Shown piece by piece: positions 1,393 through 58,653 of a DNA stretch of 58,751 nucleotides (its first letter is position 1; the number at the start of each line of letters is the position of its first letter). Below the pieces are notes generated by a model. That model made no database searches. It was given only the letters and a program-made list of their open reading frames with translations, and was not told the origin of the DNA. Source of the DNA: a virus (taxonomy: Duplodnaviria > Caudoviricetes); IMG/VR virus record IMGVR_UViG_3300030104_001141, positions 1-58,751 of that record; one strand, written 5' to 3'. The translations under genes were made by a program, and so were the position numbers.

Positions 1393-1423
1393 TTGCAATT
1401 GTGGGGTAATCCATGTTTATAAT
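1393..1423 (+). promoter_or_regulatory. Putative sigma70 early promoter
   Basis: TTGCAA (1393-1398), 19-nt spacer, TATAAT (1418-1423); the spacer is longer than optimal. Confidence 0.5.
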
Positions 1424-1429
1424 ACCCTG

Positions 1430-1868
1430 TCGTTTGGGATTGTCGTTGAAAAACCCCTTTCCAAACACGCCCTAGTGGGACACTCATTGTCCCCATGAGA
1501 GCCGGTCGCAAGGACTTGGTTCGAGGGTTCAAGCCTAGAGCCTGAATCGACACATGGGACATAATCGAGAAGAGGTAACCTGAAAATCCTCACCACGAAA
1601 AATCCGGACTTCATGTTTTTGAGAGTTTATTCAGGGTTGAGAGAGTGTTGTCTCATTGAGAACGATTCTGTCCATTAGCGAATGTCCTAGCAAGACTAAA
1701 GGTTTGGGTGGTTTCCGGAGAGTTGAGATTCCCACAGAACACAAAACTCAAGAATATCAATATGTGCTAAGGCTATGCTGGTGATGAACCGGTGTGTAAC
1801 TTGCTTGTCTCTAGGGACTAAACTTGTGAGTGTGTAAAGTAGCTAATCCCAAAGTGATAAGTCTAGGT
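1430..1868 (+). ncRNA. Putative large structured ncRNA, class unassigned
   Basis: GC-rich and without a credible ORF; 1433-1442 pairs with 1844-1853; GCAA tetraloop hairpin 1499-1522; further helices. Confidence 0.65.
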
Positions 1869-1895
1869 AATAATTTAATTTTATGGAGAAAATTT

Positions 1896-2177
1896 ATGAA
1901 TAAAATAAAAGCATTGTTGAGTTTGGTTGAATGTGAGATGAAAAGATATTATGACCCCTTTTGGAGTGATGGTAAGGATGTAATCCTTGATGATATCGCC
2001 AGTATTTTGGAGATAGCATCATTACTTTCTAGTGCCAAAGTTAGCAAGAAAGCGTTGAAATCGCATTTCAATACGCTTGATACTGAATTGAGAGACACGA
2101 TTTCATGTTTCTTAAAAAATGAAGATAACATTCATCAAGCCATGTATGAGTGTGGATATATCGTTATTTCTGAATAA
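1896..2177 (+). CDS. Hypothetical early protein
   Basis: GGAG SD before ATG 1896; leader identical to that of the 2270 gene. Confidence 0.8.
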   Translation: MNKIKALLSLVECEMKRYYDPFWSDGKDVILDDIASILEIASLLSSAKVSKKALKSHFNTLDTELRDTISCFLKNEDNIHQAMYECGYIVISE

Positions 2178-2242
2178 ACCTACTGATGAGCAACACTGAA
2201 AGGTGGCGAAACTTAAGGCTCTTTTGAGCCTTTTGTTTAGGT
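2178..2242 (+). ncRNA. Hammerhead ribozyme 1 (type I), predicted cleavage GUU after 2237
   Basis: Stem I ACCTA/TAGGT; CTGATGA 2183-2189; stem II with GAAA loop; GAAAC 2208-2212; stem III AAGGCTC/GAGCCTT; distal stem GTTATT/AATAAT. Confidence 0.9.
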
Positions 2243-2269
2243 AATAATTTAATTTTATGGAGAAAATTT

Positions 2270-2593: not shown

Positions 2594-2597
2594 TAAA

Positions 2598-2662
2598 ACC
2601 TACTGATGAGCAACACTGAAAGGTGGCGAAACTTGGGACTTTCCGGAGTCCCAATTCTAGGT
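2598..2662 (+). ncRNA. Hammerhead ribozyme 2 (type I), predicted cleavage UUC after 2657
   Basis: 39 nt identical to HHR1 (2596-2634 = 2176-2214); different stem III TTGGGACTT/GAGTCCCAA with UCCG loop; distal stem TGTTTAT/ATAAACA. Confidence 0.9.
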
Positions 2663-5467: not shown

Positions 5468-6573
5468 TGATAATACAAGAAATGACTAAAGCTAGAACTG
5501 AACTTATTATCAAACATCCTTTTTTTGGCAAACTTGCTTTAGGTATGAAAATCGTTGAAAGAGATGATATTGATACAATGGCAGTAGATGGTACTCACCT
5601 GTTCTATAACAAAGAATGGGTGTTAGGTATCACTCATCAAGAAAGAGTTGGTGTAATTGCTCACGAAGTCTTACACATTGTTTTCAAGCATCACTTGAGG
5701 AGAAAAGATAGGTGTCCACATTACTGGAATATTGCCGGTGATTATGTAATCAATGCTATTTTGTTTGAGCATGGATTTATACTACCTGATGGTGGTTTGT
5801 TTGATACAAAGTATGCTAAATGGAAAACTGAATCTGTCTACAAAGAAGTCTTTAAAAATAAAGAGCATGATGATGTCCAAACAGTTGGAGAAGTTATTGA
5901 TGCTACTGGTGAAGATGGTAAAGAACTTACTGAATCAGAACTTCAAGAGATGGAAAAAGAAATCACTGTTCAAGTTTTACAAGCTGAACAAAGTGCTAAA
6001 GGTATGGGTAAAGGTGGAGATGCTACAAAAGGTATGTTAGATATCGTGAAAGAGCAATCTGTTTCTTGGGATGATGTGTTGGCTAACTTAGTGTTGGACA
6101 AAGTAGAAACCAATGATTATAACTTCAATAATGTAAATAGAAGATTTGTACATCAAAATCTTTACTTACCTAGTTGTGAAAAGAAACCTAGTGCAAAAGG
6201 TGTTATTGCTTTAGATATTAGTGGTTCAATCTGTCGTGAAGATATGGCTATGATGCAAGATGCAGTAAACAATATTGTTCCTGTTGCAAACTTCGAGGAA
6301 CTTACAGTTCTTTATTGTGATGATGCAGTTAGGCGTATTGATACTTTTGATGCTAACGAGGAAGTAGAACTTACTTATATGAGTGGGGGTGGTACTGACT
6401 ATGAGCCTGTTATCAAATACATAGACAAAGAACTTGATAATGATATTGCGTTTCTTATCTACCTGACTGATGGATATTGTTATCCATGTAGTGAGCCTGA
6501 CTATCCGGTGATATGGGCAACCACTATGACATCACAATTCTTTAAATTTGGAGATATAGTTGAAGTTGCTTAA
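5467..6573 (+). CDS. Metallopeptidase-vWA protein (DUF2201-like)
   Basis: TMAVDG, HEVLH zincin motif, WNIAGDYVIN, MIDAS DISGS, GGGTD, YLTDG. Confidence 0.85.
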   Translation: MIIQEMTKARTELIIKHPFFGKLALGMKIVERDDIDTMAVDGTHLFYNKEWVLGITHQERVGVIAHEVLHIVFKHHLRRKDRCPHYWNIAGDYVINAILFEHGFILPDGGLFDTKYAKWKTESVYKEVFKNKEHDDVQTVGEVIDATGEDGKELTESELQEMEKEITVQVLQAEQSAKGMGKGGDATKGMLDIVKEQSVSWDDVLANLVLDKVETNDYNFNNVNRRFVHQNLYLPSCEKKPSAKGVIALDISGSICREDMAMMQDAVNNIVPVANFEELTVLYCDDAVRRIDTFDANEEVELTYMSGGGTDYEPVIKYIDKELDNDIAFLIYLTDGYCYPCSEPDYPVIWATTMTSQFFKFGDIVEVA

Positions 6574-17853: not shown

Positions 17854-20800
17854 TTAATTTCTTATCCTTAAGTCTGGTTGTAGTTCTTCAATATAAAATT
17901 TTCTGATACCCGAAATATCCATTCCCCGTAGTAAATCATTTTCAATTTCGTCAAGCTCAAGTATCTGGTCTCTTTTTTGATTTGAGCTTAGTTCCTGACT
18001 ATTATTTATGATAGCTTTAGCCTGTCTTATCTCTCCTAGTTGGTCTGATGTTTTCTTAAGGTCTTTTTGTAATCCTTGCAGTGCTTCCTTGTATTCTATT
18101 TTATATTCTTTAGTCATGCCCAAAGCACCCATATCTCCCTCATCAAGTATTTTCTTTTCTAATACTCTAAAACTTTCTACTTGATTGTCCACCATCTCTT
18201 TTAAATCAAAGAATTGATTTTCCAATCTATTACCCTCTGTTGGTAGTAAAAAAGCACCCACGACTGGAAGCTGGTCGACACGCATTGATGCACTCTTAGC
18301 TTCATTTGGACCTTTAGTAATTAAAGAATCTACAAATGTCATAGCATATGTACCTGCCGTACCTGTATAACCTGATACTAAATTTTCTATATATAAAGGA
18401 CTAATATTTAATTCGTCACCTACTTTTTTATACAATGTATCTGTACTAGGTCTGTATGCTAAATCTCCTATGTCATCTAAATACTCAGGTACTATTTTTC
18501 TACCTGTATAAAAATCATAATTAAAATAGTTTTCAACTAATGGTTGTATAGCTGTCATTTCTAATGGATTAATTTTTAAAGTATTAGTAATATTTCTTAC
18601 CATACTTTCACGCAAATCTTTTTGTGTATCGTCACCAAAAGTTTTAGCTAACAATCTCATTGGTACAGTTGTAGTTAAGAATCCTGCTTCAAATGGTAAT
18701 GGTATTCCTAAAGGTGAACCTGCTAGTTCTTTACTTCCCGGAATAATAATATAGTTATCTTTAGTTTCTTCTGATGCTTCTTCCCATTCTTCTGAATCTC
18801 TTACTAATAAATAGTAGTAAGGCATTAAAGATATATAAGATAACATTCTTAAAGCAACTGCTGCTGCTCTTTTTCTACGAGTTAATCCTCTACCTATTCC
18901 ATACTTACCTGTAAGTCCTCTATAGAAAACATCAACACCTTGTAGTCTAGGATTTAAAAACATAGTTGATTGTGTAACAAGTTGAAACGATTTGTTATTG
19001 CCACGCCTTGTAAAGTTAAGAACTTCCATAGCTTGTGATAGAGCTTCTGCTACATCTCCTGTTCTTTTTAATGTATCTTTATATACAGATACTCTTGTTG
19101 CCGCATCAGTTATAGCAGTACCTTGACCTAATATATCCCATACTTTTGTAATGATATCAAGAGGTGCTGTTGCTACTTTAGATAGTGTAGTTTTTTCTTT
19201 ATATCTTTCTTTCTTATATGCATTTTCAACAAGAGTTTGTGTGCTATCAATGTCTCTAACACCTCTTTCATAGCCTTGAATAATACCTGCATTTCTTAAA
19301 GCAACATATTCTTCTGGCAAGTTACCTGTCATCATTCCATATGTTATTTTTGCACTTTCTTTAAGCTGACTTAATATTGGCACATAATTAGCTCCACTTA
19401 AAAACCAAGCAGACATACTATCTCTTACTACTTGTCTAAACCAGAAGTCAGGCATTCTGGTTATAAGGTCACTAACCATTCTTTTACTTCCTCGCATTAC
19501 ACTCATTAGCATATTAGTTGGAAGAAAATCTCCACCTGTCATAACAGTAAATAAATTATAATTATCTGGGTCATCAACACTAAATGATTTAGTTTTACCT
19601 TTAACTTTTATCTTAACTATATTAGGTCCAGCAGTATTATTTTTAACTTGTTCTGCTGCTTTAATTATAACTAAGTTACGCATAGTTCTATTAGCTGCTA
19701 CATTTTTCATACCAGCATTAATAGCTGCTCTTGCGTTGTTTGTTATACCTGTTATTGGGTCGACAATATTTTTTTCTTCACTACCTTTAGCTCTTTTAAA
19801 AGGAGATAGTTGCATACCTTGAAATATTTGTGGTCCTTTAAATCCTTCTTCACCTTCCATTGCTCTATAAAATGGAATGTAATCTGAATGTTCCATCCAA
19901 ACATTCCCAGTCTTTTCATCAAGAACTCCTGTGTCTATAAGGAATCTAACTAAATGACGATTCCAACGCTGGTAATCATCAATCATTGTTTGTATTTCAG
20001 GATGTTCTTGTAAAGCAATTACTGCATCTTTCTTATCTTTTGCATTTATCTTTACTTTTCTACCTTCATTATTAAATCTAGTTTCTCTTTTTACTGCAAG
20101 TACAGCTTGAAATGCCCACATCATTTGAGGATTGTTATAAGCATTTTTAAATATTTCGTGTGGTGCTTTAATTGGTTTACCATCTTCAGGAGATATATCT
20201 ACTACTGTAGTAAATCCTTTCTTTGTATTATATACAGGTACACCATGCATAAAAGCTTGTTGATATATGTCTCCTGACCTATCTGAATGATACATTGCTG
20301 CTGCTGCTGAAAGAGATGCAGATAAAAACTTTTGTCCTTGTTCTGTTTTTCTACCGGCAGAATAATCTGTTTCTGCAATTCTTGCATACTGGTCTAGTAT
20401 TGCTTCTCTAAATTTTAATGGGTCAACAGATTTAAAAGACTTTAATACTTTACTAGAAATAGTTTCATTATCAGGAAGTAAATCTCTGATAGTCATTTTC
20501 TTTACTAATCTTTCTGTGGCTGGTTTAAGTGGCTTACCACTTTTCTTAAATGAGTATTTAAGTTTTGTATTATTATCTATACCATCAATAATAGAATCAA
20601 CATCTAAGTTTATTGTACTAGCATTTTTAATATCTTTCTGTGCATTGATTGCTGAAAGCTTTGCTTCAGGTGAAGCGTTATCACTAATTACAGGAGTGAC
20701 TCCTGCCTTTATTGATTTTTGTTTTTGGAGTTCGACTTCTGTTTCTGCTTCTTCAATTGCACTCGCAAGGTCGGACCGTTCTGCATAACTTCTTCGAACA

Positions 20801-23800
20801 TCTCCGATTCCAATTTGTCTAGGCTCTCCATACTCTTGTAGTAATTTACTGGGGTCTTCTTCAACTGTCTGTTCTCCTTTTGCAAAGTTATTATTTAAGA
20901 AGGCATAGTTATCTATCAAACCAGAATCCTTCAATCTATTGTAAGTATCTCTTGGAGTATTTTCAACATCAAGAAAATAATCTGTAGCTATAAGTCTACC
21001 TGTATCTACAAATCTATTCATCATTCTAACTAAAGCATGATTAAAGTCTGTATCAATTAATATAACATCTACACTATAACCTTTTGATTTTAACATAGAA
21101 ATTTTCTTTTCCATGCTTCCATATTTAGAACTACCACCAACAGAAGGTATAATTATATTAGCACCAAGATTTGTTATATTATCCATAACAGAAGCTGCAT
21201 ACTTACTTGACATTGGTGCTGTAGCATTAGCACCTAATCCACCTTTAAATTCAGGCATCATTTTTTTAGCATCATCTGAATCTATTATTGCTGATTTAGT
21301 TTTTTTTGCTAATTGTTCTGCAAAATAAGACTTGCCAGAAGCAGGTAATCCAATTAAGAAAGTAGCTTTTTTATCAACAGATAAAATATCTTCTGCATAA
21401 GCTTCAGCTATTTCTATTAAATCATGTACAAATTTTGGTTTTAGTTTTCCTTCTACTGTTGGTTGACTAAACATTATTCTTTCAGCTTCAATTAACGCAG
21501 GATGTTTTAATATATTACTTAATTGTTTTTGTGTAATGTTTCCTAGATTTATTTTAGATAATTGAAATCTTAAATCATTTAATGCATGAGTATATTCTCT
21601 GTCTGTCATTCCTCTAACAGTTCCATCTTCTTTAGTTAATGGAGCAACATCTCCACCAAGTCCAAGAGTTGGAGACATCATTAGACTAACTGTTTTTTCT
21701 GTTAACTCATCATCAAATTGTTTTATACTTTTTTGACCAATTCTTTTTTCATCTGCAATTCTATCTTTAATAGATTTTAATTCTATTGGTCCTAGTCTTT
21801 CTAACTTAGATGGTATTAAATCATTTACATTAACTAATAGTTCTTGTTCATATTGTCTTGAATAAGTTCTTTCATATGGACTTATTTGTAAATCTTCTTG
21901 TGTATCTTTTGGAGCTAAAGCATTTATGTCTGCTAATACTTTAGACCTAGGTATTAAATATTCTGTTAAAACATCATCATCACTTACTCTATAGCCTGAT
22001 TCAAGACGACCTGCTGCAAAGTCTTCTGCTATTGATTTGTTCATTGTTACAGGAACTACATCATAGTTAGGATTAATTTCTCCGCCTCTATATACAACTA
22101 TAAATTCTGGAAAATATTTCATAGAACTAAAAGTTATATCTTCTATAGCCTGTCTTACTTCATCAATCTTACCCATTCTATATTGAGGCAGACCTAAGTT
22201 ATCTATTATATAATCTTCATCACCTTGTAATATTGCTGCAATAGAATCAGAACCTTGATTATCTATATCTTTTAATATTGCATCAACTAACTGATAATCT
22301 AATCCTGACATTTCTTCAACACCTGTTAGTTCATCTGCAAATCTTTTATATAAATTATCTATTTGAAATTGAGAAGCTCTTATAGTATTTAAAGATTCTG
22401 TTGTCATTCTTCCTTCAGTTCTTTTTAAACTGTACTTAACTCTAGGAGATGATGTGCCTATAACTGGATTAACTTTTTCTGTTGATACAATATTTAAAGG
22501 AATACTTCTTGAGTCTACAGAAAATAATCCTTCTGATTTATATGGATTAGATATATATGGTTTACCAAGATTAAATAATTGAGGATGAAAAAATACAGAA
22601 TACTTAGGCACATTTACTGTAGATAATTTAGATGTATCACCAACAGTATCGTAATTAATATTACCTTGTAGTTGTGCTGTTTTTAAAGCATCTTGTTTAT
22701 TAATATGTAATATTGTTTGTGAGTTTCTTGATGGGTCTCCTACCATATACATAGGTATAGTAGTTACATCTTTACCAAATTGATTTTGCAAAAGCATACT
22801 GCTTAATAATCTAAAATAGTTTTGTGTAAGTTTTACATCATTATTATTATTTAAGTTTGTCTTTCTTCTATTTAATAAATAGTTATCAAATATATCTTGT
22901 TCTTCAAACAAAGCATTTGTTATCTTATTTAGTTTTGTAGAAAATTGTTTTTGTTGTGCTCCAAATAAAAACTCATTTACTAATGGTGACTTAGGTTTAC
23001 CATCTTGATTGGATGAATTTTTAAGAGAAAATTTTAAAGTAGGACTGTCTTGTATATCAGGCAAGTCTTCAACATCTGCTACACCTGCTGTTTGTTTGCC
23101 TCGTTCAAATATGTTTGCAAATTCTGTTTCAGTTCTATCTGTTTCTAATGTAGTTCTTACTACACCTCGTTGCCTGTTAGCTATTTCTCCAGAAGTAACT
23201 CTATTAAATATATCAGTAGCATTTGTAAATCCATTTCCTTTTAAAGAATTGGTTAGACTTGCAAAAAAGTTTTCAACCTTATTAAAAATTTGTTGCGGTT
23301 TACCTGTAACATTTTTTTTATTTTCACCAAATTCTTCAAATCCTAAACCTATAGCTTCTTCTATAATATCTGATTGAGATTCTATTGCAGATAATTCTAA
23401 TGCTTCTGGAGTATTATATGCTCCTTCTGGGTCTGTAATTATTTCAAGATATGTTTTCTTGCTACCTTTAGGCTTTTTTGTTCTAGCAAAATTTGCTAAA
23501 GTATTATATTCATCTTCAGTAAATACATCTGCTTGTCTAAGGGCATGCCAGTTTTCGTGAGTTAATATTCTTGCTAAATTATTTAAATATTTTTTTGGGT
23601 CTTTTTTATATTCAGTTCCGGCTCTATCTATAGGTATAATTATTTCATCAAAAACTTTATTGTATGCACCTTCTAATTCAATATTACCTTTTATATTTCC
23701 TATATAAGGGTCAAACTTAATAGACATTTCTGGATTCTGTTTTTTAAAATCTTCTGCAAAATTATCTAAATCTTCATTAATTTTAATATCTTCTGCAAAT

Positions 23801-26268
23801 TTTATAGAGCCATCAAAATTATATTTTTGACTACCTGTTCCTACCCATTTATTATTTTTTATATAACCAGAAGTAATTAAATCTTCTTTTAATCTTTTAG
23901 CTTCTGAATTATTTAAACCAGTTGCATCTTTAATTATTTTTAATGTAGTTTTTTTAGATTCTTCAATAGCATTTATAGCTTTAGAGTAATCATTTAATGA
24001 ATAACTTCTATGTGTAAAATCAGGTAGAAGTATTAAATCTGTTGATGGTGGTAAGCTTTCTATTACAGAATATAAAACTCTGCGTTGTGCAACACTCATT
24101 TTTTCTACAGAAGATTCACCTGTAAAATGCAAAGCAAGTCTTTTAAATGACTCATCATTTACATCACTATCTATATTTTTATTTTTAAGAACTCGTTTTA
24201 TTGTTGCAGCAGATACGCTGTTGGGTGCACTTGATTCATTAAGCAAAATGTTTTCACTTCTTGCATTCATTACTTTATCAAACTGTGCTTTAGATAAAAT
24301 ATTTTTTAATTGACTTATTGCTACATTAGCTTGATTGCCTGTAGCATCTTGAATTGTTTTTATTATTTCTTGGCTTACACCTATTTCATTTAACTCTTGA
24401 AAGCTAATGCCATCATAATAAGGATTAGAAATTTTTAATCCTAGATTTTGTATTGTAGAATTATTACTATCTAAATTTTGCATTAAGATATAATCGTTAA
24501 CTTTTTCTACAGCATACTGAGTTTGACCTATAAGATTTAAACCACTAGAAACTTGACCAGCTTTTTCTAAAGAATCATATGGTGAAAAGGGTTGATTTGT
24601 TTTTGGATTAATTAATACATTGCCTTGATAATCTGTAATAGAAAATGTGTTATCACCATTATCTTTTACAAGAAATGCATTAGGAGTTTCTGAATTTTCT
24701 GTAACAATTTTACTAGGAAAAGATGTAGGATTTTTAAATTCATCTGTAAAGCTTTTGTAAATTTCAAAGGCTTCACCAAATCCGGGCATGTCATTATTGT
24801 ATTCTTCTATAGTTTCAGAAAAAGCTTTTAAAGGATTCTCTCCACCTTCAATTCTTGCTTCAGATTTTTTGTTAATATCAAAAGCTATTTTTTCTGCTTG
24901 TTCTCCAAAACCTTTTTGTTTCATTTGTTCTAAATAAATTTCAAAAAAGTTTTTACCTAATCTATATTGTGTTTCAGTTTTTAATGCTTGTGATTTTTTT
25001 ACATCTTGAAATCCAGCAGATGCTTGTCCTAGTATTGCTTCAGCAGGAGCAAAGGCAAACTCACCTATTATCTCCATATTTATATCACCAAATCTTAAGG
25101 TTTCACCTTCTTCTAAAGTAAAGTATTGACCAGTAGCTTCACCTGCACCACCTAATGCACCTTGTAATGGTGCTTGAATTAAGGTATTCATTGCTTGTTT
25201 TGCAAATATATTTTGAAATCCAAATGGATTAAAAACTTTAGTAGCCATACCAAAAGATAAAGCATCAAATGTACCTATTGCAGTACCTCTAATTCTTGCA
25301 TATTTTTTTGCTTCAGCTATTAATTCTTTATTACCCATAAACTTAGCAACAGATTGTGGATTGTTTACATCCATTCCTTTCTTTTGCAAGTATTCTATAT
25401 ATGAGTAAGCATTATCTATAGCACCAGATGTAAAACCTGTAGCTGCTGAACCTGCTAGAACATTACCTGTTGCTAATGTTGTTCCTACACCTGCTCCAAG
25501 AGAAGCTAACATAGGAACAAAACTTGTACCCATTACTTCTAATGGTAAACTTAGGTCAAAGTTTTCTGAATAGGGATTTAAAAAAGCAAATGCATCAATA
25601 AGACCTTCTGATTCTGCTAAAGCATTAAAAGCTTTTGAGTGTCCAAGACTTTGTATATATTCATTATTTTCTTTAGTGTCTTGTATATTTTCTTGAACTC
25701 TTTGCTCAAGACCTTTATCTTGTCTTTCTTGTAATAAATCACCAAAAGCTTGAGCCATTGGTGGTACTGAATAAAGGTTTTGAAAACTTATATTTTTTCT
25801 TTTTTTATCTAGTTCTTTTTGTGATTTTCCAGTACCTTTTATATCTAATATTAGTTGTTCTTTGTCTGCTTCTTGTTTAGAAGTTAAAGGTCTTATACCT
25901 TCTAAAGCAATATAGCTATCTAAAAGTTGTTGTTTTTTTAAAAGTTCAGGAGCTGTTGCAGATAGAGCATAAAAGTTTGCAGCATTTTTTGCTTGTTTTG
26001 CACCACCTATAACTTGTTCGACAAACGAAGATTCTCCTTCTGTTTCAGTAAAATTTAAATCTACAGGTATTAAAGACTGCAATACTTTTTGTGTATGACT
26101 AAGTTCATCTGTAGGAATTATTTTAGTTTTAGGTTGAGGTTGAGATTGGAATTGAGGTGTATATGCAGATAAAAATTTTTCTTTTTCTTCAAAATAATTT
26201 TCATCAGTTACATAATCAGGAAGATAATGTTTTAATCCATCATCTGTATATACAATATATTTAGCCAT
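17854..26268 (-). CDS. Giant polyvalent internal virion/ejection protein (zincin motif, zeta-toxin-like kinase, LPD38-like C-terminus)
   Basis: HENWH; GLPASGKS...IDSDDAKK; C-terminal 'IPLPFEAG...ENYFNYDFYTGRKIVP'; last gene of the virion operon. Confidence 0.75.
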   Translation of the reverse strand: MAKYIVYTDDGLKHYLPDYVTDENYFEEKEKFLSAYTPQFQSQPQPKTKIIPTDELSHTQKVLQSLIPVDLNFTETEGESSFVEQVIGGAKQAKNAANFYALSATAPELLKKQQLLDSYIALEGIRPLTSKQEADKEQLILDIKGTGKSQKELDKKRKNISFQNLYSVPPMAQAFGDLLQERQDKGLEQRVQENIQDTKENNEYIQSLGHSKAFNALAESEGLIDAFAFLNPYSENFDLSLPLEVMGTSFVPMLASLGAGVGTTLATGNVLAGSAATGFTSGAIDNAYSYIEYLQKKGMDVNNPQSVAKFMGNKELIAEAKKYARIRGTAIGTFDALSFGMATKVFNPFGFQNIFAKQAMNTLIQAPLQGALGGAGEATGQYFTLEEGETLRFGDINMEIIGEFAFAPAEAILGQASAGFQDVKKSQALKTETQYRLGKNFFEIYLEQMKQKGFGEQAEKIAFDINKKSEARIEGGENPLKAFSETIEEYNNDMPGFGEAFEIYKSFTDEFKNPTSFPSKIVTENSETPNAFLVKDNGDNTFSITDYQGNVLINPKTNQPFSPYDSLEKAGQVSSGLNLIGQTQYAVEKVNDYILMQNLDSNNSTIQNLGLKISNPYYDGISFQELNEIGVSQEIIKTIQDATGNQANVAISQLKNILSKAQFDKVMNARSENILLNESSAPNSVSAATIKRVLKNKNIDSDVNDESFKRLALHFTGESSVEKMSVAQRRVLYSVIESLPPSTDLILLPDFTHRSYSLNDYSKAINAIEESKKTTLKIIKDATGLNNSEAKRLKEDLITSGYIKNNKWVGTGSQKYNFDGSIKFAEDIKINEDLDNFAEDFKKQNPEMSIKFDPYIGNIKGNIELEGAYNKVFDEIIIPIDRAGTEYKKDPKKYLNNLARILTHENWHALRQADVFTEDEYNTLANFARTKKPKGSKKTYLEIITDPEGAYNTPEALELSAIESQSDIIEEAIGLGFEEFGENKKNVTGKPQQIFNKVENFFASLTNSLKGNGFTNATDIFNRVTSGEIANRQRGVVRTTLETDRTETEFANIFERGKQTAGVADVEDLPDIQDSPTLKFSLKNSSNQDGKPKSPLVNEFLFGAQQKQFSTKLNKITNALFEEQDIFDNYLLNRRKTNLNNNNDVKLTQNYFRLLSSMLLQNQFGKDVTTIPMYMVGDPSRNSQTILHINKQDALKTAQLQGNINYDTVGDTSKLSTVNVPKYSVFFHPQLFNLGKPYISNPYKSEGLFSVDSRSIPLNIVSTEKVNPVIGTSSPRVKYSLKRTEGRMTTESLNTIRASQFQIDNLYKRFADELTGVEEMSGLDYQLVDAILKDIDNQGSDSIAAILQGDEDYIIDNLGLPQYRMGKIDEVRQAIEDITFSSMKYFPEFIVVYRGGEINPNYDVVPVTMNKSIAEDFAAGRLESGYRVSDDDVLTEYLIPRSKVLADINALAPKDTQEDLQISPYERTYSRQYEQELLVNVNDLIPSKLERLGPIELKSIKDRIADEKRIGQKSIKQFDDELTEKTVSLMMSPTLGLGGDVAPLTKEDGTVRGMTDREYTHALNDLRFQLSKINLGNITQKQLSNILKHPALIEAERIMFSQPTVEGKLKPKFVHDLIEIAEAYAEDILSVDKKATFLIGLPASGKSYFAEQLAKKTKSAIIDSDDAKKMMPEFKGGLGANATAPMSSKYAASVMDNITNLGANIIIPSVGGSSKYGSMEKKISMLKSKGYSVDVILIDTDFNHALVRMMNRFVDTGRLIATDYFLDVENTPRDTYNRLKDSGLIDNYAFLNNNFAKGEQTVEEDPSKLLQEYGEPRQIGIGDVRRSYAERSDLASAIEEAETEVELQKQKSIKAGVTPVISDNASPEAKLSAINAQKDIKNASTINLDVDSIIDGIDNNTKLKYSFKKSGKPLKPATERLVKKMTIRDLLPDNETISSKVLKSFKSVDPLKFREAILDQYARIAETDYSAGRKTEQGQKFLSASLSAAAAMYHSDRSGDIYQQAFMHGVPVYNTKKGFTTVVDISPEDGKPIKAPHEIFKNAYNNPQMMWAFQAVLAVKRETRFNNEGRKVKINAKDKKDAVIALQEHPEIQTMIDDYQRWNRHLVRFLIDTGVLDEKTGNVWMEHSDYIPFYRAMEGEEGFKGPQIFQGMQLSPFKRAKGSEEKNIVDPITGITNNARAAINAGMKNVAANRTMRNLVIIKAAEQVKNNTAGPNIVKIKVKGKTKSFSVDDPDNYNLFTVMTGGDFLPTNMLMSVMRGSKRMVSDLITRMPDFWFRQVVRDSMSAWFLSGANYVPILSQLKESAKITYGMMTGNLPEEYVALRNAGIIQGYERGVRDIDSTQTLVENAYKKERYKEKTTLSKVATAPLDIITKVWDILGQGTAITDAATRVSVYKDTLKRTGDVAEALSQAMEVLNFTRRGNNKSFQLVTQSTMFLNPRLQGVDVFYRGLTGKYGIGRGLTRRKRAAAVALRMLSYISLMPYYYLLVRDSEEWEEASEETKDNYIIIPGSKELAGSPLGIPLPFEAGFLTTTVPMRLLAKTFGDDTQKDLRESMVRNITNTLKINPLEMTAIQPLVENYFNYDFYTGRKIVPEYLDDIGDLAYRPSTDTLYKKVGDELNISPLYIENLVSGYTGTAGTYAMTFVDSLITKGPNEAKSASMRVDQLPVVGAFLLPTEGNRLENQFFDLKEMVDNQVESFRVLEKKILDEGDMGALGMTKEYKIEYKEALQGLQKDLKKTSDQLGEIRQAKAIINNSQELSSNQKRDQILELDEIENDLLRGMDISGIRKFYIEELQPDLRIRN

Positions 26269-57165: not shown

Positions 57166-58653
57166 CTAATAGTAGTTAGCTTCTCTTGGTGGTAAATCTT
57201 CATCTTCTTCGTCTGAATTTAAAGGTATAAACCCACCCTGTCTAAATCTTAATAATGCTTGTGTAGAAGAATCTACTAAGTCGTCATGTTCACCTGCTGG
57301 AAAAGCTGCAAATTCTTCTATTACTTCTTCAGCAAATCTTCTATCAGGTGCCCAAACAATTCCAGATGCAAATAAGTCTGCAACAGCATTTACTCTTGCT
57401 ATCTTATCATTACCTCTGCTTGGTGTATATTCTGATACTGGTATACCCATTTGCCTTAATTCAAATATCAAAGGCAAACCTGCTGCTTTTGCTTCAACAA
57501 TAAATGCTTCAGGTTGCCAATCATTATACATTTCAAAAGCTTTCTTTTTTAAATCAGGAAATTCTAATCTTTCTTTGTAAGCATCTAGCAATATAACTTG
57601 TGGTTGTGTAATACCATCATCATCCGGTTTATAAAAAACACCCCATGTGGTACACGCAGAGTAGTCAGAACGCTGTGTTTTTAAAAATGCTGTGTCCCAT
57701 GACTGTATAACAAAATCGCACTCAGGAGGGTTCTCATGTTCCCATTCATTCCACCATTCTCTTTTGATTATGGCAGCACCTTCTGATGTAGGGTCTTGCT
57801 GATATTGAGCAGACCATTTTGCTACAGGTAACTCAGCTCTTAATTTTTCTAATTCTTTTATGTCCCAAAATTCTTGCCACAAGCTTTTACCTGAAGGCAG
57901 TATTGCTGGAAACTCTATAACTTTCCATTCATCAGAACCTTCTCTTTGTGTAGAAGATTTTAAAATCTGTCCAGTTAGGTCTCGTTTATGCCATCTTGTC
58001 ATTACGATTATGATTGCACCACCGGGTTGCAGACGCTGACGAGGACCAGAAGTATAGTATTCGTAAACTTTATCAAATACAGAAGGGTCTCCACTTTGAC
58101 CTTCTTGTTCTGAATGGGGGTCATCTATGATAAGCAAGTCAGCACCTTTACCGGTTACTGCACCTCCTATACCAATCGCAAAGTAATCACCACCCTTATT
58201 TGTATTCCAACGACCAGCAGCTTTACTGTCTGATTGTAAACCTACATTTGGAAATACTCTTTTGTAATCTTCGGAACCAACAAGGTTTCTAACTTTCCTA
58301 CCAAACCCTACAGCCAATTCTGCGGTATGGGCAACTTGAATTATTTTTTTTTCAGGAAAGCAACCTAAAAACCATGCAGGTAATAAATAAGATGCAAACT
58401 CAGACTTAGTATGTCTAGGTGGCATATTAATTATTAATCTTTTTAATTTACCATTTTTAACATCATCAAAGGCATCAGCCATAATCTTATGGTGATAACC
58501 TTCAATAAAAGCAGCCCACATTTCTTTTGCAAAAAATAAAAAATGTTCTGCTGATTGTTCTTGGCTTTTTGTTTTCTGGTAATCATCTAATAAATCCAGC
58601 AAAACTTTTTGTTGTTCTTCAGGCAACTTAGATAATTTTTCTAAATCAATCAA
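57166..58653 (-). CDS. terL: Terminase large subunit
   Basis: INMPPRHTKS; LLIIDDPH; VMTRWH; YQQDP; SWDTA; HDDLVDS. Confidence 0.95.
   Translation of the reverse strand: MIDLEKLSKLPEEQQKVLLDLLDDYQKTKSQEQSAEHFLFFAKEMWAAFIEGYHHKIMADAFDDVKNGKLKRLIINMPPRHTKSEFASYLLPAWFLGCFPEKKIIQVAHTAELAVGFGRKVRNLVGSEDYKRVFPNVGLQSDSKAAGRWNTNKGGDYFAIGIGGAVTGKGADLLIIDDPHSEQEGQSGDPSVFDKVYEYYTSGPRQRLQPGGAIIIVMTRWHKRDLTGQILKSSTQREGSDEWKVIEFPAILPSGKSLWQEFWDIKELEKLRAELPVAKWSAQYQQDPTSEGAAIIKREWWNEWEHENPPECDFVIQSWDTAFLKTQRSDYSACTTWGVFYKPDDDGITQPQVILLDAYKERLEFPDLKKKAFEMYNDWQPEAFIVEAKAAGLPLIFELRQMGIPVSEYTPSRGNDKIARVNAVADLFASGIVWAPDRRFAEEVIEEFAAFPAGEHDDLVDSSTQALLRFRQGGFIPLNSDEEDEDLPPREANYY

Follow-up and report, generated by a model that had tools for sequence, protein, structure and literature searches.

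Few conserved RNAs exceed 400 nucleotides (nt) and adopt pseudoknotted tertiary folds; those that do have time and again proved to be ribozymes or unexpected assemblies made of RNA only. According to a preprint, GOLLD and ROOL build multimers that consist of RNA alone (bioRxiv 10.1101/2024.12.08.627333). Hammerhead ribozymes occur in tandem in prophage operons, and one stands at the start of a halovirus early transcript, as described by Perreault et al. 2011 (PMC3088659). Additionally, 8,495 candidate RNAs averaging 67 nt were reported from IMG/VR (PMC10690425). Here, we describe a structured non-coding RNA (ncRNA) of about 430 nt, encoded at approximately 1431-1863 on the plus strand of IMGVR_UViG_3300030104_001141, a complete virus record of 58,751 base pairs (bp) that was analysed as a whole and is called the window below. 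The RNA belongs to a family not previously described. No published description of it was found in the literature searched, a search outside which the supplementary tables of PMC10690425 lie, and pieces of the ncRNA may be among the candidates of that study.

For the comparison with known families, the window was submitted to Rfam 15 (4227 models), which resulted in no match at the gathering score. Within 1430-1868, the region delimited in the initial annotation, a permissive E-value gave only two chance-level matches (E 6.8-7.7), and 20 homologous loci searched at E up to 0.5 gave nothing relevant. The annotation had left the RNA unassigned, and with no Rfam match it stays so. The families GOLLD, ROOL, HEARO, OLE and raiA, which are included in Rfam, gave no covariance-model match, and the RNase P model had no match in Rfam searches either. 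An RNase P-like reading of GAAAAAUCCG and ACAGAAC was tried and rejected, as the partner strands misfit and the model did not match. ARAGORN found no transfer RNA (tRNA) or transfer-messenger RNA gene in the window. The annotation had also suggested a group I intron P7 or a stand-alone ribozyme and had named a search with Rfam and group I models as a check; the search gave nothing relevant, and even with E as high as 10, the region matched neither the group I model nor that of any other ribozyme.

Homologues were collected by several routes. The homologous gap free of open reading frames (ORFs), 650-700 nt long, was found in 15 of 17 loci reached through the flanking ATPase and TerS proteins, and the remaining two loci stop before the gap. 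A pattern from the best-conserved block resulted in 24 viral-contig loci and a second pattern in 46 metagenome loci, 44 of which were upheld by nhmmer. The 60 full-length matches reduce to 42 distinct sequences, each about 430-480 nt long, which fall into four clades: A (the clade of the window) with 4 members, B with 9, C with 15 and D with 14. The mean column identity of the 42-sequence alignment is 66%. The 5' end of the ncRNA was taken from the promoter, and the 3' end lies at or past 1858.

All family members come from marine viral and metagenome contigs. A pattern scan of 185,579 species genomes gave seven matches, none upheld by nhmmer and thus at chance level, and nhmmer on 10-kb stretches of the Pelagibacter phages HTVC027P and HTVC023P recovered no homologue. 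Because blastn of 1300-1900 against 50,697 GenBank phage records gave no match, and only 3 of 79 loci of distant TerS relatives carried the ncRNA (all three with TerS at least 66% identical), the family appears restricted to one group of uncultured marine phages, as far as the searches reach.

The initial annotation had named covariation among homologues as a test, and this comparison carries the structural claim. Over the 42 sequences, and for the helices that are cleanly aligned by MAFFT, 47 proposed pairs were 97.0% paired, and 30 of them showed changes on both sides. Shuffles averaged 79.9% and none of 500 reached the observed value, although this control overstates the significance because four clades give few independent changes. 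When the partners were slid by 1-3 columns, pairing fell to 39-51%, both-side changes to 4-12 pairs, and the covariation score from 0.574 to 0.06-0.18. Compensations also occur within clades, for example UUGA/UUGA (locus L021) and AAAG/CUUU (L027) in helix P1 and GUCUA/UAGAU (L058) in helix Py. The slid-partner control and these within-clade compensations are stronger evidence than the shuffle control. The same pair set was 97.0% paired on the plus strand versus 85.4% on the minus strand, with 249 G-U cells; therefore, the RNA is read from the plus strand. As judged from the aligned homologues, the region is shown to encode a conserved plus-strand RNA whose compact fold includes two long-range contacts and whose unpaired core is nearly invariant.

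These data bear directly on the idea that the region has no RNA function, being either an element that works at the DNA level (an origin, pac site or operator array) or a decayed gene. We disfavour this idea as scarcely credible. The 249 G-U cells would be A-C on the other strand or meaningless in duplex DNA, compensatory changes keep the pairs, the region is present in RNA libraries, and no ORF remnant is common to the clades. What the idea has in its favour is a non-coding region at a divergent junction with an ordinary folding energy.

The coordinates of the structure model and of its surroundings are given in Table 1. RNAalifold on the MAFFT alignment recovered only 35 pairs, and the rest of the model comes from column inspection by eye and from anchored counts. 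Some helices were counted with regular-expression sequence anchors because MAFFT places them wrongly: clade A is misaligned in the 3' domain, and clade D is off by one base in P1. The covariation-supported fold has -90.5 kcal/mol (pseudoknots excluded) versus -117.1 for the minimum free energy (MFE) fold, and the two folds differ.

Table 1. Positions of the RNA, its structural parts and the neighbouring elements in the window.
Feature	Position	Strand	Remarks
Structured ncRNA	1431..1863	+	nhmmer matches across the whole profile at 60 loci (42 distinct); both ends approximate
Sigma-70-like promoter (predicted)	1393..1423	+	TTGCAA 1393-1398, TATAAT 1418-1423, conserved GTGGGGTA in spacer
P1	1433-1439 with 1459-1465	+	Inner four pairs 168/168 cells paired
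P2, hairpin inside P1	1445-1447 with 1452-1454	+	GAAA loop; 122/126 paired
Free invariant CCCU	1455-1458	+	Enclosed by P1
Hb	1475-1478 with 1593-1596	+	Closes junction domain 1475..1596; 100% paired
Hairpin a	1479-1491	+	Outer pairs 100% paired
Pq	1492-1497 with 1553-1558	+	Encloses hairpins b and c; 96.4% paired
Hairpin b	1500-1521	+	GCAA loop; inside Pq
Hairpin c	1526-1548	+	Loop CCUAGAG; 94.7% paired; both-side changes in 6/9 pairs
Hairpin d	1572-1575 with 1588-1591	+	100% paired
Pseudoknot	1579-1584 with 1630-1635	+	Hairpin d loop CCUGAA with UUCAGG; 252/252 cells; 5/6 pairs changed on both sides
Most conserved stretch	1597..1629	+	GAAAAAUCCG 1597-1606, hairpin e 1607-1617, UUUGAGAGUUUA 1618-1629; invariant columns in alignment A1
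Hairpin e	1607-1617	+	UCA-type loop; first three pairs 123/126, 3-5 pair types each
Pw	1637-1641 with 1747-1751	+	UUGAG with CUCAA; closes variable middle domain
3' domain	1764..1850	+	Begins GUGCUAA 1764-1770; tail invariant AAUCCC 1845-1850
Py	1771-1775 with 1840-1844	+	210/210 paired; 2-4 types in 4/5 pairs
Clade A-specific hairpin	1778-1792	+	CUGG/CCGG
Pz, long hairpin	1799-1808 with 1822-1831	+	Loop CUCUAGGGACUA; outer four pairs 165/168
Loop-loop contact (proposed)	1535-1540 with 1809-1814	+	Hairpin c loop CUAGAG with Pz loop CUCUAG
Leader of first ORF	1863..1897	+	Near-exact second copy at 2235-2274, after a predicted hammerhead cleavage site
Type I hammerhead-like ribozyme	2173..2243	+	Between early ORFs; weak model matches; three-stem junction fold
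Second type I hammerhead-like ribozyme	2596..2662	+	Between early ORFs; weak model match; three-stem junction fold

About half of the individual helices in the initial annotation turned out wrong, including the one said to join the two ends. In that helix (1433-1442 with 1844-1853), the 3' AAUCCC is invariant while the 5' GGGA varies, and the 5' variants UUGA (n=1) and AAAG (n=2) are compensated in a local partner, 1459-1462, within P1; the inner pairs of P1 read GGGA/UUCC, GGGG/CUCU, UUGA/UUGA or AAAG/CUUU. A proposed CCAAAC/GTTTGG helix is not supported either, 1459-1465 being already taken by P1. The strand 1747-1756 had been paired with 1614-1623; its CUCAA at 1747-1751 covaries with UUGAG instead, forming Pw in 140/140 cells of the 28 clade A-C sequences and in 41/70 of the 14 clade D sequences, where this register is not formed. 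For GCCTAGA/TCTAGGT, the flanking UCUAGGU exists only in clade A, and the conserved partner of GCCUAGAG is the Pz loop. This loop-loop contact has six contiguous pairs in 41 of the 42 sequences and five in the remaining one, with CUUGAG/CUCAGG or CCUGAG/CUCAGG in clade D; 13 of 2000 shuffles reached six pairs. Three hairpins fared better: comparative analysis supported the inner part of GGGACA/TGTCCC (GACA/UGUC, 1479-1482 with 1488-1491), the GCAA tetraloop hairpin placed at 1499-1522, and, in clade A only, the core of the hairpin placed at 1774-1796.

The RNA itself was found in marine metatranscriptomes. Seven RNA-library runs match small shares of the stretch, and the four examined come from four studies; flank parts without contig cover were not counted as evidence of absence. 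All contigs of the four runs lie inside the ncRNA, save one from a neighbouring gene. A contig of 416 nt mapped end to end on 1444-1858 with a depth of 20.1 and 95% identity, and others covered 1469-1630, 1575-1807, and 1454-1604 with 1618-1767. From the same strain, the adjacent gene formed a separate contig with a depth of 5.4, not joined to that of the ncRNA. The contigs are good evidence for the presence of the RNA and for its being longer-lived or more numerous than its neighbours. Contigs give neither strand nor true ends, and their limits are only a hint of where the ncRNA ends.

The claim of a large multi-domain ncRNA heading the rightward early genes is borne out by the covariation, the RNA-library contigs and a conserved upstream promoter. 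We favour, tentatively and at somewhat below an even chance, the reading that it is a discrete, stable, trans-acting RNA released from the early transcript. Host RNA polymerase would start at the sigma-70-like promoter, at the head of a rightward operon divergent from the terminase operon. As the covariation shows, the RNA folds into a compact body: a 5' clamp (P1/P2), a multi-hairpin junction domain, a pseudoknot beside a core of 33 nt that is nearly invariant, a middle domain that varies, and a 3' domain, the hairpin loop of which touches a loop of the junction domain. As the contigs suggest, it would accumulate as a discrete molecule, apart from and more abundant than the neighbouring messenger RNA (mRNA). 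Release would be by a downstream hammerhead in clade D and probably in clade C; in the clade of the window, the 3' end may arise by host RNases or by cleavage near GUC/UAGGU at 1863/1864. Once free, the RNA would act in trans at an early stage of infection; most likely it would bind a factor of the host or the phage, or self-assemble, with the invariant single-stranded GAAAAAUCCG, GCGUUUA, GUGCUAA and AAUCCC as putative binding segments.

The putative release sites were examined by inspection and folding. Clade D has a canonical type III hammerhead about 18-75 nt 3' of AAUCCC, just before the ribosome-binding site of the first ORF (for example, L029:1176-1233). It has CUGANGA and GAAA cores, three stems and an NUH site. 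Stem III is UUUCUGA(U)/(A)UCAGAAA with 8 bp and predicted cleavage after UA, stem I is GUUGGAU/AUCCAGC, and stem II covaries (UUGC/GCAU or UUCC/GGAU); the core reads CUGA-N-GA, with A, U or AU at N7, and GAAA. The MFE fold of clade D is exactly the type III hammerhead junction. Clade C carries a hammerhead-like element after the ncRNA (for example, L025:1220-1290), with GUC before stem I and covarying stems I (CUUG/CAAG or CGUG/CACG) and II (GUAUCC/GGGUAC or GAACCC/GGGUUC).

In the window, two hammerhead-like ribozymes lie further downstream. The first matched Hammerhead_3 over 2145-2217 (E 0.021) and RAGATH-1 over 2153-2242 (E 3), and the second matched RAGATH-1 over 2573-2662 (E 0.42). The hammerhead-model matches in the window range overall from E 0.02 to 3.7 and from 16.5 to 24.5 bits, below the gathering cut-offs of 48.5 and 56.3. 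Both elements carry CUGAUGAG and CGAAAC cores, with predicted cleavage just before UAGGUAAUAA, and regular-expression scans missed both because stem II has A-G mismatches. The 35-nt leader that starts at the predicted cleavage site of the first hammerhead is the leader that follows the ncRNA at 1863; the repeated stretch spans 40 nt (UAGGUAAUAAUUUAAUUUUAUGGAGAAAAUUUAUG and neighbours) at 1861-1900 and 2235-2274 with 98% identity. Two further candidates were rejected. As a hammerhead in its own right, the ncRNA could pair GCCUA 1533-1537 with UAGGU 1864-1868, but then GAGCCUGAAUC follows and not CUGANGA; and a cut at 1863 made in trans by the downstream hammerheads would need cores and stems that are absent. 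In another phage, whose TerS is 40% identical, an ORF-free leader at L106:900-1100 (minus strand) contains CCUACUGAUGA, GAUCGAAAC and GGUC/UAGGUAAU in this order, and it looks like a type I hammerhead with long stem insertions that ends in the UAGGUAAU of the window.

That the ncRNA represents a new class of ribozyme, acting for example on its own 3' end, on the early transcript or in another reaction, we consider distinctly unlikely. The compact pseudoknotted fold with its nearly invariant unpaired core would suit a ribozyme, as would the strand order of Hb and the pseudoknot, which is like that of P3/P7/P8 in group I introns. The neighbourhood is rich in ribozymes, and the clade A RNA ends near GUC/UAGGU, the context of the downstream hammerhead cleavage sites. 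However, no ribozyme model matched and no catalytic motif was identified; cleavage of its own 3' end would be redundant because clades C and D carry a separate hammerhead for the cut; and the contig is unbroken over 1444-1858, which argues against efficient internal cleavage.

Rather unlikely, though to be taken more seriously, is a role in cis as the 5' leader of the early operon, for instance as a riboswitch of very large size or another sensor, whose fold would govern how the mRNA directly downstream is translated, how stable it is or whether a ribozyme cleaves it. The ncRNA stands between the promoter and the first ORF in four clades, and in clade B the ribosome-binding site follows AAUCCC after only about 25-35 nt. 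Many invariant junction nucleotides and a pseudoknot are present, as in ligand-binding RNAs, and in the window the hairpin c loop CCUAGAG has two possible partners, the Pz loop and UCUAGGU 1862-1868, which lies immediately before the ORF leader. On the other hand, the linker to the ORF is unconserved between clades, no conserved pairing with the ribosome-binding site or a terminator was seen, and a ribozyme separates the ncRNA from the mRNA in clades C and D. The end-to-end contig stops before the ORF, with the gene in its separate contig of lower depth. The size of 430-480 nt is also far above that of known riboswitches.

Several points weigh against a discrete trans-acting RNA and against the structural evidence beneath it. 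Only four clades are available, hence the limited number of independent events already mentioned. The window sequence is thermodynamically ordinary (MFE z-score of -0.03 on the plus strand and -0.05 on the minus strand versus shuffles); because its MFE is no better than that of shuffles, pairings proposed from the window alone are not above chance, and structural support therefore rests on the 42 homologues and not on single-sequence folding. Contigs leave strand and true ends unspecified, and one contig only spans the ncRNA end to end. The abundance may be that of a stable decay remnant, the RNA staying attached as a 5' leader in clades A and B, where no ribozyme lies between the ncRNA and the first ORF; the short distance to the ribosome-binding site in clade B points the same way. 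Rfam models reported neither the clade D nor the clade C hammerheads at E up to 10. With its 2-nt N7 and two additional A ahead of GAAA, the clade C element may be a hammerhead core variant of uncertain activity. The ORFs just 3' of the ncRNA differ between clades with no conserved partner protein found, and no target, partner protein or host-RNA complementarity was found for the ncRNA itself. As a candidate partner, a conserved early module (MoxR-like ATPase, DUF3150 and DUF2201) was considered and set aside, none of its members being RNA-related.

Turning to the genome, the structural and packaging genes lie on the minus strand (TerL at 57166-58653, portal, head and tail genes, and TerS at 755-1234), and a rightward block of small ORFs and DNA-metabolism genes begins at 1896. 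The ncRNA sits in the 660-nt gap between terS and the first rightward ORF. As the initial annotation had stated, no credible ORF is present: none longer than 65 amino acids was found on either strand within 1430-1868, and none is common to the relatives. The G+C content (GC) is likewise above that of the flanks, with 0.49/0.455 in 1401-1700 versus 0.30-0.36 in the flanks and 0.33 in the genome. The richest 200-nt stretch of the 58.7-kb genome falls in the ncRNA region, the top three 200-nt windows by GC include those at 1401 and 1451, and this gap (0.42) is the sole ORF-free gap with raised GC, all others being at most 0.33.

The TATAAT noted in the initial annotation at 1418-1423 is present. 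In all four clades, the alignment has a TTGACA-like hexamer, about 17 nt, and a -10-like hexamer directly upstream of P1, and GTGGGGTA in the spacer is conserved, with inverted orientation in clade C. A promoter scan gave no call in the window because the spacer to TATAAT is 19 nt; from its sequence, we infer that 1393-1423 would be used as a promoter. As a repeated operator, GTGGGGTA was rejected, as it is not enriched (5 matches versus 7 expected). Upstream of the promoter lies a hairpin, GCUUAC-UUC-GUAAGC at 1317-1331, which covaries in relatives (GUUGGC/GCCAAC and GCUGCU/AGCAGC) and is followed by an invariant GAACAU at 1347-1352.

In every clade with flank available (37 loci), the ncRNA adjoins the small terminase gene in a divergent control region. 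This location is what a role in phage DNA transactions would draw on, either as an origin pre-primer resembling ColE1 RNA II or as a packaging RNA resembling the phi29 pRNA. The RNA appears discrete and promoter-proximal, the cumulative GC skew reaches its minimum here, and the invariant CCCU and AGGG(G) could pair between molecules. We regard such a role as very improbable: the skew minimum falls where gene orientation switches, the TerS/TerL pair of the phage is normal, and no likeness to pRNA or RNA II was seen, no dedicated comparison with pRNA having been made. Furthermore, hammerhead cleavage leaves a 2',3'-cyclic phosphate, which is unable to prime DNA synthesis.

Two other observations concern the window at large. 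The palindrome TATTAAC-NN-GTTAATA has 24 matches (both strands counted) versus 2.4 expected, mostly just upstream of genes, with sites at 1243, 2666, 4553, 6619, 8657, 11125, 12491, 13824, 15921, 17834, 27492 and 35925, among others. The palindrome differs from the sigma-70-like promoter of the ncRNA and is probably a promoter or regulator site specific to the phage. The minus strand at 17854-26268 encodes a protein of 2,804 amino acids with a Zeta-toxin-like kinase domain (residues 1633-1786) and an LPD38 domain, which looks like a large polyvalent virion protein.

The carriers of the ncRNA are uncultured marine phages whose nearest cultured relatives infect SAR11. By TerL, the closest are HTVC027P (55% identical) and HTVC023P (52%); their TerS is only about 20% identical to that of the window. 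The ncRNA can be detected in the ocean metatranscriptomes of several studies; it opens the early transcription unit, beside self-cleaving ribozymes. It is a defined, short object for structure work and for the question of how phages of streamlined ocean bacteria begin host takeover.

Among known systems, the phi29 pRNA is a discrete phage RNA from an early promoter, beside packaging genes and with loop-loop pairing. At about 170 nt, it is smaller than the ncRNA, and the phage of the window has TerS and TerL. The group I core shows a different likeness, in the strand order of Hb 5', multi-hairpin domain, pseudoknot 5', Hb 3', hairpin e and pseudoknot 3', which we take to resemble P3/P4-P6/P7/P8. 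Unlike in group I introns, the 5' strand of the pseudoknot is in a hairpin loop, and the long invariant joining strands differ. With group I models unmatched, no interrupted gene, exons or tRNA were found, the ncRNA follows a promoter, and no features of a G-binding site were identified. As for the likeness to P7 noted in the initial annotation, GGGACTAAAC lies in the loop of the long hairpin Pz, with no exon context, and GGGACUAAAC is likewise the Pz loop.

With GOLLD and ROOL, the ncRNA shares the size class that the initial annotation had named, as phage-encoded, discrete RNAs of several hundred nt with multiple domains, pseudoknots and unknown function. It is a member of neither family: the ncRNA is smaller, heads an early operon, lies in a window that has no tRNA genes, and matches neither model at the gathering score or at E up to 10. 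Hammerhead-processed phage transcripts (PMC3088659) have ribozymes between genes and at the start of an early polycistronic transcript. The hammerheads flank the next ORFs in the window and the ncRNA in clade D in a similar manner; the ncRNA differs in having no hammerhead core and in being a far larger extra element upstream of the ribozymes.

The cultured relatives offer the nearest comparison of position. In HTVC023P, the gap before terS (L098:2320-2867) contains CTAGGAAA(A) five times or more and a GC-rich repeat of about 28 nt twice, an arrangement that looks like origin iterons or an operator array. HTVC027P has an ORF-free, GC-rich leader of about 460 nt (L097:5675-6135, minus strand) close to the terminase genes, in a region of divergent promoters; a TTGACA-N17-TATATA promoter precedes it, and it folds well (z -4.1) and holds the Rfam motif Flavobacterium-1 (5754-5874, 90 bits, E 5e-18). 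It differs from the ncRNA in showing no nhmmer homology, in its Flavobacterium-1 motif, which has no match in the window, and in heading the strand that also carries terS. With an unrelated structured leader at a comparable place in HTVC027P, the comparison suggests that these phages may more widely carry a large structured RNA there. Going further, we offer as an unlikely but attractive speculation that the ncRNA represents a new class of RNA machine in common ocean phages. Produced first upon infection, it would serve to take over or disarm the host cell, either as a large ribozyme or as an assembly of RNA only that is built through its invariant loops; unrelated large RNAs such as that of HTVC027P would then occupy a comparable place since the role, and not the sequence, is needed.

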